Both the position numbers and the translations under genes were made by a program. Under the pieces are notes generated by a model, which ran no database searches, was not told the DNA's origin, and saw only the letters and a program-made list of their open reading frames with translations. Below are positions 19,996 to 21,056 of a stretch of DNA of 30,838 nt, in pieces. Numbering within the stretch: the stretch's first letter is position 1; the number at the start of each line of letters is the position of its first letter. The DNA is from Acidilobaceae archaeon (GTDB lineage: Archaea; Thermoproteota; Thermoprotei_A; Sulfolobales; Acidilobaceae), in contig JALWGG010000186.1 in the NCBI GenBank assembly GCA_027013765.1, forward strand, positions 1 through 30,838, in the 5' to 3' direction.

Positions 19996-20553
19996 GTGGA
20001 GCTACGGGACCTTGTAGTGGTACTAGACGTGTCGCTTAGCATGGGGAAGGGCTACGGGGACCTTAGGCCCTCCAAGCTGGACGCATCCAAGGAGGCGATA
20101 CTCGTCCTAGCGGATAGGCTACTGAAGAAGGGGCCTAATAGGCTGGGCATAGTAGTATTCTATGGCAGGTCACTCCCACTGCTACCACTAACCAGCGACA
20201 AGGCCAAGATACTAAGGGCCATATACAGGGTGAACTTCACCGAGGAGGGCTCCGCACCAGGGGATGGGATAATAGATGCAGTCAAGATGCTGAGGTCCTC
20301 AAGGACTGGTAGGAGGAGGGAGGTCCTCCTACTCACGGATGGAGACATAAACCTAGGCGCACCCCTGGAGGCCGCCCTGCTATACGCCTTCAACTCCGGG
20401 GTCTCAATCTACACAATCACGGTTGGAGAGAGGCCGAAGACCGAGGATATATACAGGGCCAGCATGAAGGCCTATGGGTGGAGGTATGACCATGCATCCA
20501 ATAGGAGCCAGCTACTATCCCTCATAGTAAGATACCTGGAGGGCCCCCAATGA
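19996..20553 (+). CDS. Stand-alone vWA domain protein with intact MIDAS
   Basis: LVVVLDVSLSM (DxSxS), DLRPSKLDASK, LGIVVF, GSAPGDGIIDA and VLLLTDG. GTG start 4 nt after the upstream stop. Confidence 0.9.
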   Translation: MELRDLVVVLDVSLSMGKGYGDLRPSKLDASKEAILVLADRLLKKGPNRLGIVVFYGRSLPLLPLTSDKAKILRAIYRVNFTEEGSAPGDGIIDAVKMLRSSRTGRRREVLLLTDGDINLGAPLEAALLYAFNSGVSIYTITVGERPKTEDIYRASMKAYGWRYDHASNRSQLLSLIVRYLEGPQ

Positions 20554-21056
20554 TAGTCCAGCTAGTCGTGGAGAAGTGGAGGCATACACCACTAGACACC
20601 GTCTTCAGGATCATAGAGGAGGTAGAGAGACAGGCCTGGAGGGGCGATAATATAGGAATGATAGTCTTCGGCTCAAACCCAGCGCCAATCCTAGACCCAG
20701 GCCCCAGCAGGCTATCCCCCACAGACTCATTCACCCGGGCCCCCCAAATGCCTGGAAGACCCAATCCTGGCCCCGCACTAGTCGAGGCCGTGGACCAGAT
20801 GGCAAGCTCCACTGTAGAGGTTGAAGAGTGGCCATTGATCCTGGTATGGAGTGCAAGGTCCAGGCCCAAACACCTGGACCTACACCTATCCTACGCCATA
20901 GATGCCGGGGCATCCATCAGGCTAATAGCCTTAAGGCCCAGCAAACCCCCCTGGCTAGACGAGGAAGACTATCAGGGGAAACTCGTTATAAAGAGGATTA
21001 GGAAGAACACTAATATAAAGAGGCTAGTATCGGAAGTCTTGAATACTCCTCTATAA
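20550..21056 (+). CDS. Degenerate vWA-like protein lacking MIDAS
   Basis: ATGA overlap with the upstream vWA gene. Collinear similarity: IGMIVFG vs LGIVVFY, GRPNPGPALVEAVDQM vs GSAPGDGIIDAVKML, LILVWS vs VLLLTD, ASIRLIAL vs VSIYTITV. No DxSxS motif. Confidence 0.65.
   Translation: MIVQLVVEKWRHTPLDTVFRIIEEVERQAWRGDNIGMIVFGSNPAPILDPGPSRLSPTDSFTRAPQMPGRPNPGPALVEAVDQMASSTVEVEEWPLILVWSARSRPKHLDLHLSYAIDAGASIRLIALRPSKPPWLDEEDYQGKLVIKRIRKNTNIKRLVSEVLNTPL

Follow-up and report, generated by a model that had tools for sequence, protein, structure and literature searches.

What do two bare von Willebrand factor A (vWA) domains, encoded by overlapping genes beside a nuclease gene, do in an archaeon? The question is raised by a stretch of 30,838 nt (contig JALWGG010000186.1; hereafter the window) from a 77%-complete metagenome-assembled genome of a Desulfurococcales/'Acidilobaceae' archaeon, recovered from hydrothermal-vent metagenomes. 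Three consecutive plus-strand genes are concerned: PINf (19224..19991), encoding a 255-aa fusion of RHH, UPF0175 and PIN domains; vWA1 (19996..20553; 185 aa, GTG start), a stand-alone cytosolic vWA domain with an intact MIDAS (metal ion-dependent adhesion site); and its paralogue vWA2 (20550..21056; 168 aa, ATG start), which is devoid of this site. A sequence-only reading of the window had described the latter two as stand-alone vWA open reading frames (ORFs) with an ATGA overlap, and both ORFs and the overlap (20550..20553 of the plus strand, the ATG start of vWA2 and the TGA stop of vWA1, read directly from the sequence) were confirmed. We consider it fairly probable that the two vWA proteins form a heterodimer with a free MIDAS, which binds or regulates a domesticated PIN nuclease of toxin-antitoxin (TA) origin within a module of two or three genes.

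The vWA1 protein consists of its domain and little else: it starts at the first beta-strand, and the domain spans the whole protein from residue 5 on. It matches the Pfam models VWA_2 (1e-15; 58.7 bits, cut-off 27) and VWA (4.8e-11), and no signal peptide, transmembrane helix or cysteine was found in its sequence. Across 29 orthologues the MIDAS residues D11-x-S13-x-S15, S86 and D115 vary hardly or not at all, and the pattern DSS[S/T]D is present in 55 of 58 vWA1-type genes. The motif, the fold and the VWA_2 score are those of a vWA domain with a functional MIDAS, and judging by them vWA1 keeps a working metal site.

The single vWA2 sequence matches none of the Pfam and NCBIfam models, and Pfam VWA_2 is touched weakly by 6 of 17 members of its family. 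The profile of the vWA2 family is aligned by hhalign with that of the vWA1 family at 97.2% probability (E 2.9e-11, 100 columns). The AlphaFold2 model of vWA2 (predicted local distance difference test, pLDDT, 94.1; predicted template-modelling score, pTM, 0.91) is superimposed on solved vWA domains over nearly its full length with Z 17-19.5, the best match being CMG2 (VIA Z 19.5, root-mean-square deviation 2.3 Å, 157 residues). All five MIDAS positions are substituted: the DxSxS site reads mostly A-E-K, the MIDAS Ser/Thr site is P or A, and the T-D-G site is W-S. The family has hallmark residues P46, S101, W135 and R151, and the vWA2 sequence contains no cysteine. Thus vWA2 has lost the MIDAS yet retains the collinear vWA core. 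This is what had been noted from the sequence, an intact site in the first protein and a lost one in the second, and the residues, the profile alignment and the predicted fold all agree with it.

We examined the module in 55 loci found by PINf alignment, two pairs of which represent the same contig twice. PINf adjoins vWA1 in all 55, the genes usually overlapping or lying a few nucleotides apart. A second vWA gene is present in 42 loci. Its usual place is downstream on the same strand; loci L006, L007, L071-L073, L075 and L101 have it in convergent orientation, and in genome G012 (L044, L065) it lies upstream of PINf. Of 301 genomes of the class, 74 have PINf-type genes; among them are 43 of the 52 genomes in the family of the window and members of at least seven further families. 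There is mostly one such gene per genome. A sample of 301 genomes from the whole phylum contained them only in three families of the order to which the window belongs, and none outside the class. Among the genomes searched, the PIN-vWA module is confined to one archaeal class. It was found neither in the literature searched nor in PADLOC: the PADLOC-DB 2.0 models gave no match to PINf, vWA1 or vWA2 at E<=0.01, and the word Willebrand is absent from the PIN-family survey PMC5499597. The ingredients, that is, vWA domains, pairs of a domain and its pseudo-domain paralogue, and TA-derived PIN proteins, are of known kinds; their combination in this module appears to be new.

The constant partner of the vWA genes, PINf, carries in a single chain an RHH domain (residues 1-42), a UPF0175-like region (approximately 45-95) and a PIN domain (approximately 100-250). 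Members of the family match Pfam PIN-TPR-GreABC (10 of 14, best 5.3e-6) and UPF0175 (4 of 14, 1.8e-6), as well as RHH_1/RHH_8. The AlphaFold2 model has pLDDT 91.1, and its top Foldseek matches are the PIN domains 2mdt (SSO1118, a member of COG2405; the first match), 1o4w and 1v8p. Three acidic residues, D105, E179 and D197, show no variation among 29 sequences. The C-terminal tail is conserved (P243, P247) and is followed by Asp or Glu in most sequences. Since UPF0175 is known solely as a predicted antitoxin, occurring exclusively with COG2405 PIN toxins (PMC5499597), PINf looks like a TA pair that has been fused and fixed.

From family to family, the RHH domain of PINf (window positions 19224-19350) shows extreme conservation. 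In NCBIfam it best matches CdrS, a regulator of cell division in haloarchaea (E 3.9e-4, below the cut-off), and RHH cell-cycle regulators (aCcr1) are known in Sulfolobales (PMC9976892, PMC9976878). Two loci contain, after vWA1, a small free-standing ORF corresponding to the RHH alone (positions 1-42 of the PINf model; L054:4902-5117, plus strand, and L062:3101-3418, minus strand); the same loci have two MIDAS-intact vWA copies flanking PINf. In two loci of one family (L052:3992-5203 and L064:3980-4909, both on the minus strand) the frame stays open for approximately 50-140 residues upstream of the RHH of the PINf homologue, and this may be either a real N-terminal extension or a mere open frame.

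The origin of PINf suggests another possibility, namely that the module is a three-component TA or conflict (defence) system, in which the PIN domain would be the toxin, the UPF0175/RHH part the antitoxin, and the vWA pair a sensor of infection or stress releasing the nuclease. Besides the exclusive pairing of UPF0175 with COG2405, it is in favour of such a system that new three-component systems reportedly belong to this family (PMC5499597), that in Pfam the PIN domain best matches that of the TPR-GreAB-C-PIN system, that the top structure is a COG2405 protein, and that the module is patchy across families. On the other hand, it occurs mostly as one copy per genome and in most genomes of the window's family, the G+C content of the locus is ordinary, and the flanking housekeeping genes are stable, an S-layer-like gene being found in 29 and an endonuclease IV-like gene (nfo) in 16 of the 55 loci. 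None of the three proteins has a match in PADLOC. Toxin and antitoxin in one chain differ from the classical scheme with an unstable antitoxin; type II TA systems have separate genes, are often multi-copy and mobile, and here there is one ORF, mostly one per genome, in a conserved neighbourhood. We regard a present-day TA or defence function as rather unlikely and prefer a nuclease that descends from a TA system and has become a cellular component controlled by the vWA proteins.

The origin of the vWA pair itself was addressed by clustering, profile searches and a phylogenetic tree. The vWA1 and vWA2 sequences join in one blastp-linked cluster. In a search of 1.84 billion representative proteins with the vWA2 profile, its own family amounted to only about 45 short proteins, and the top single-domain matches following it were vWA1 orthologues (165-246 bits on the vWA1 profile). 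Some vWA2-family members still have the DxSxS motif, and in one family (f15; the loci L054 and L062 mentioned above) the second copy is fully MIDAS-intact, with Asp where vWA1 has K97. In the maximum-likelihood tree 37 vWA2 sequences form one clade (SH-like approximate likelihood-ratio test, SH-aLRT, 99) with a long stem, which is attached among the vWA1 sequences of genomes carrying vWA2. Because of the common cluster, the profile matches, the DxSxS remnants, the MIDAS-intact copy and the clade, an origin of vWA2 by duplication of vWA1 inside one class of Thermoproteota, with later loss of the MIDAS, fits the data. This duplication would be independent of the one that produced the eukaryotic pair p44/p34. 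The core of PINf and vWA1, we infer, was joined later by vWA2 or, in some lineages, by a second MIDAS-intact copy. Intermediates are retained in related genomes, which have a lone vWA, two MIDAS-intact copies, or one intact and one dead copy, and the module may serve as a compact model for the evolution of paralogous heteromers and pseudo-domains.

Among the matches of the vWA2 profile, long multi-vWA proteins are interleaved with the vWA1 orthologues. The very long ones (P0019 with 3534 aa; P0036, P0038, P0049) contain 6-14 tandem vWA stretches, and their high scores result from summed domains.

The complex of vWA1 and vWA2 was predicted in three runs with matched 29-row alignments, along with three controls. 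The interface score ipSAE was 0.88, 0.87 and 0.88, compared to 0.01 for the best control. In the benchmark, 58 of 80 solved complexes attain this ipSAE mark, as do 2 of 110 mismatched pairs; the counts are a rough guide only, since custom alignments were used here. At least 93% of contacts are common to the three runs, and the partner pLDDT is 92. In the predicted dimer, vWA1 is contacted at residues 93, 96-97, 100, 121-123, 125-127, 129-130 and 132-135, which belong to the helices following the MIDAS residues S86 and D115, and vWA2 at residues 39-68 and 82-88. Against these helices lie loops of vWA2 from the side that once held the MIDAS and from the beta2-beta3 region. None of the MIDAS residues of vWA1 is among the predicted contacts.

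Sequence conservation is consistent with this interface on the vWA1 side. The mean entropy of the vWA1 interface columns is 1.25, compared to 1.90 elsewhere, and 0.5% of randomly drawn residue sets reach so low a value. The interface includes seven non-MIDAS columns of vWA1 that are at least 85% conserved (V96, K97, R100, G121, P123, A127 and Y130). Where a second vWA is present, the signature K/R97-K/R100-Y130 was observed in vWA1 at 38 of 41 loci; where it is absent, at 1 of 13, and this one locus ends at a contig edge. We predict that vWA1 and vWA2 form a heterodimer, their binding being supported rather than demonstrated. The suggestion of the sequence-only reading that the two proteins make an archaeal vWA heterodimer is thus supported by the multimer model, and its linkage to the PIN fusion by the 55 loci; the other partner then proposed for this scaffold, endonuclease IV, is adjacent in 16 loci only.

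The following mechanism may be proposed. The two proteins would make a stable asymmetric heterodimer in which the MIDAS of vWA1 is exposed. In integrin I domains, and between INTS14 and INTS10 (PMC7347597), the MIDAS binds an acidic side chain through a divalent cation. By the same chemistry, the MIDAS of vWA1 could engage an acidic residue on a third protein, for which the likeliest candidate is PINf, with the Asp or Glu of its conserved C-terminal tail. The vWA dimer might then hold, gate, target or localise the PIN nuclease. Such a latch between the MIDAS and PINf is a tentative part of the scheme, and we would give it considerably less credence than the general assignment of the vWA pair to the nuclease.

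Several points weigh against the proposed role of the pair. Firstly, vWA1 occurs without any second vWA in 13 of the 55 loci. In four whole genomes without an adjacent vWA2, a search with the vWA2 profile revealed no second copy elsewhere: it returned the vWA1 gene only in three of them and nothing in the fourth. Therefore vWA2 is dispensable for the core function. Secondly, the four library proteins meant as outgroups for the tree turned out to be vWA1 orthologues and were placed inside the ingroup, so the tree is unrooted and the direction of the duplication is deduced indirectly. Thirdly, the interface of vWA2 is no better conserved than the rest of this protein (fraction 0.27), and about two evolutionary events account for the association of the vWA1 signature with a partner (1-2 pairs by independent contrasts), which leaves it no statistical power. 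Finally, the dimer is given by a model confidence score, in which a memory effect is possible because vWA domains are common in solved complexes, and the identity of the MIDAS ligand is a guess.

The window contains one more candidate partner for the vWA proteins. A gene 4 kb downstream (25241-26182, plus strand) encodes a MoxR-type AAA+ ATPase (AAA_5, 2.7e-18), and vWA1 and vWA2 might be its adaptors, as in metal-cofactor insertion, the PIN neighbour being incidental. Such partnerships of MoxR and vWA proteins have precedents, being established for NorQ/NorD and the chelatases (PMC9976466), and in the window the MoxR gene and a CoxE-type vWA gene are on the same strand. However, the ATPase already has this vWA partner of its own: its gene overlaps by 23 nt that of a 664-aa protein (26160-28154, plus strand) with a C-terminal CoxE-type vWA domain (3.5e-12). 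The two form a classical MoxR-vWA pair, separate from vWA1 and vWA2. Moreover, there is no MoxR gene among the neighbours common to at least 5 of the 55 loci, whereas the PIN gene is present in all of them. An adaptor role of this kind seems very improbable.

The conserved neighbours bear as well on the idea, contained in the sequence-only reading, that the pair is related to p44/p34 of TFIIH or to Rpn10. In the window, the genes PINf, vWA1 and vWA2 are followed by a fourth one on the same strand, and the four ORFs occupy positions 19224-21934 with successive gaps of 4, -4 and 8 nt. The product of the last gene (21065..21934, plus strand, 8 nt downstream of vWA2) is an endonuclease IV-like TIM barrel that matches Pfam AP_endonuc_2 (1e-25) and scores 51 bits with the deoxyribonuclease IV model of NCBIfam (nfo, TIGR00587; cut-off 129.65). 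The assignment as endonuclease IV is plausible and not secure. One could imagine that the pair, as an archaeal equivalent or forerunner of the vWA scaffold of TFIIH p44/p34 (or Rpn10), acts with this enzyme in DNA repair. However, the endonuclease IV-like gene is a neighbour of the module in just 16 of 55 loci (9 of 15 in a smaller locus set), and its adjacency looks like local synteny rather than a constant part of the module. No helicase is encoded among the neighbours common to at least five loci. Other recurrent neighbours are a 108-aa ORF (15 of 55) and a subtilase gene (14 of 55).

The sequence comparisons do not support specific kinship to p44/p34 or Rpn10 either. When the profile of 29 vWA1 sequences was compared with PDB sequences, BatB/BatA-type domains were matched at 5e-17 to 5e-14, Rpn10 at 9e-5, p44 at 0.01 and INTS14 at 0.024, and p34 was not listed at E<=10. 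The vWA2 profile had weak generic vWA matches, such as CMG2 (0.0019) and p44 (0.016). Thus BatB/BatA-type domains are better by at least 12 orders of magnitude than the matches with Rpn10 and, marginally, p44 that could be cited for a TFIIH-like origin, and the p44 alignments offered in the sequence-only reading did not reappear as anything specific, the family profiles giving p44 only E 0.01-0.016. The Pfam model Ssl1 (PF04056) has no match at E<=1 in 14 vWA1 or 17 vWA2 members, and Tfb4 (PF03850) has a match of 0.024, below the cut-off, in 2 of 14 vWA1 members. The common fold does not help to choose. The model of vWA2 scores Z 19.5 with CMG2, 19.2 with the BatA-like 4jdu, 18.9 with Rpn10, 17.5 with INTS14, 17.4 with p44 and 17.2 with Ssl1, and these relatives, being within about 2 Z units in a comparison made with a predicted structure, are effectively tied.

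The domain composition differs too. The vWA domain fills the 185 and 168 aa of the two proteins, and the C-terminal zinc domains of p44/p34 (eZnF, RING/C4) are absent; since vWA1 and vWA2 contain no cysteine, they have no zinc fingers. It is these domains that join the eukaryotic proteins. Although p44 and p34 had been cited as a vWA-vWA heterodimer, the published contacts are the interlocking zinc-finger domains and that of the p34 vWA with the p44 RING (PMC6422496, PMC5737387), and the crystallised p34-p44 contact is of the latter kind, with no vWA-vWA dimer (PMC5737387). The architecture of Rpn10/S5a is not observed, as vWA1 ends with its vWA domain and leaves no room for ubiquitin-interacting motifs. 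Together with the fit of vWA2 to a class-specific duplicate of vWA1 and the failure to find the module outside one class in the phylum sample, this makes descent from, or ancestry to, the TFIIH or Rpn10 scaffold extremely unlikely. The data rather suggest a generic vWA domain that was duplicated locally, and the module sheds no light on how TFIIH or the proteasome lid originated.

The locus has the following further features, all on the plus strand. PINf is preceded by an AT-rich intergenic spacer of 117 nt (19107..19223) with TATA-like runs tttatataat near 19133 and tatagctataatag near 19171, which is likely to contain the promoter of the operon. The sequencing runs listed as containing the stretch are all DNA runs of hydrothermal-vent metagenomes, with no RNA run among them. 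Candidate Shine-Dalgarno boxes are GGAGAGG (19980..19986), within the 3' end of PINf and 9 nt ahead of the GTG start of vWA1, and GGAGGG (20538..20543), within the 3' end of vWA1 and 6 nt ahead of the ATG start of vWA2. An antisense ORF at 20160-20393 (minus strand) was not regarded as a gene, as it is 'conserved' in 19 loci only via the vWA1 coding sequence on the opposite strand. A large S-layer/stalk-like gene (10709-14968, plus strand) lies a few kb upstream of the module, with equivalents in loci L047-L101 and the same orientation as the module. It is a more common neighbour of the module than the endonuclease IV-like gene.

The closest relatives of vWA1 by sequence are the BatA/BatB-type VWA_2 domains (PF13519; 3ibs, 4jdu, 4rck), with which it has the MIDAS and the compact fold in common. 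However, BatA and BatB are bacterial proteins of some 320 aa that are anchored in the membrane, whereas vWA1 and vWA2 are bare cytosolic domains. The NCBIfam models of BatA and BatB (NF047508 and NF047506) align only by their vWA part (profile positions 90-233), with 58.2 bits against a cut-off of 380 and 37.4 against 350, respectively. Unlike these proteins, vWA1 has as its companions a paralogue devoid of the MIDAS and a PIN nuclease. Similarly, PINf has both domains of the predicted COG2405 (DUF3368 PIN) / COG2886 (UPF0175) TA pairs, but in one fused chain with an added RHH, mostly single-copy, stably placed and always beside a vWA gene. The module suggests a route by which a TA PIN nuclease may become a permanent part of the cell, controlled through contacts between proteins.

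The likeness to TFIIH p44/p34 lies in two paralogous vWA proteins that bind each other, by prediction in the archaeal case, in a complex processing nucleic acids. The differences are the joining via eZnF and RING domains, the marginal or missing sequence signal, the apparently independent, lineage-specific duplication in archaea, and the helicases XPD/XPB, which have no counterpart among the common neighbours of the archaeal module. The best functional analogy is provided by INTS13-INTS14 of the Integrator complex (6sn1), a heterodimer of paralogous vWA-containing proteins, in which the intact MIDAS of INTS14 recruits INTS10, and which contacts the nuclease (cleavage) module (PMC7347597). INTS13 and INTS14 are eukaryotic and dimerise via additional beta-barrel and helical domains, and a sign of common descent with the archaeal pair is seen only at the level of the vWA superfamily. 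It is possible, though we put it forward with reserve, that a metal-dependent latch of a vWA and a pseudo-vWA on a single-chain antitoxin-toxin PIN RNase constitutes an undescribed archaeal nuclease complex, a prokaryotic and independently evolved counterpart of INTS13/14, p44/p34 and Ku70/80. The coupling of an active domain with a paralogue that has been inactivated is a recurrent feature of such eukaryotic nucleic-acid machines, and the same design has apparently arisen independently in hyperthermophilic archaea, where the parts are as small as possible, each being just a bare vWA domain (168 to 185 aa).

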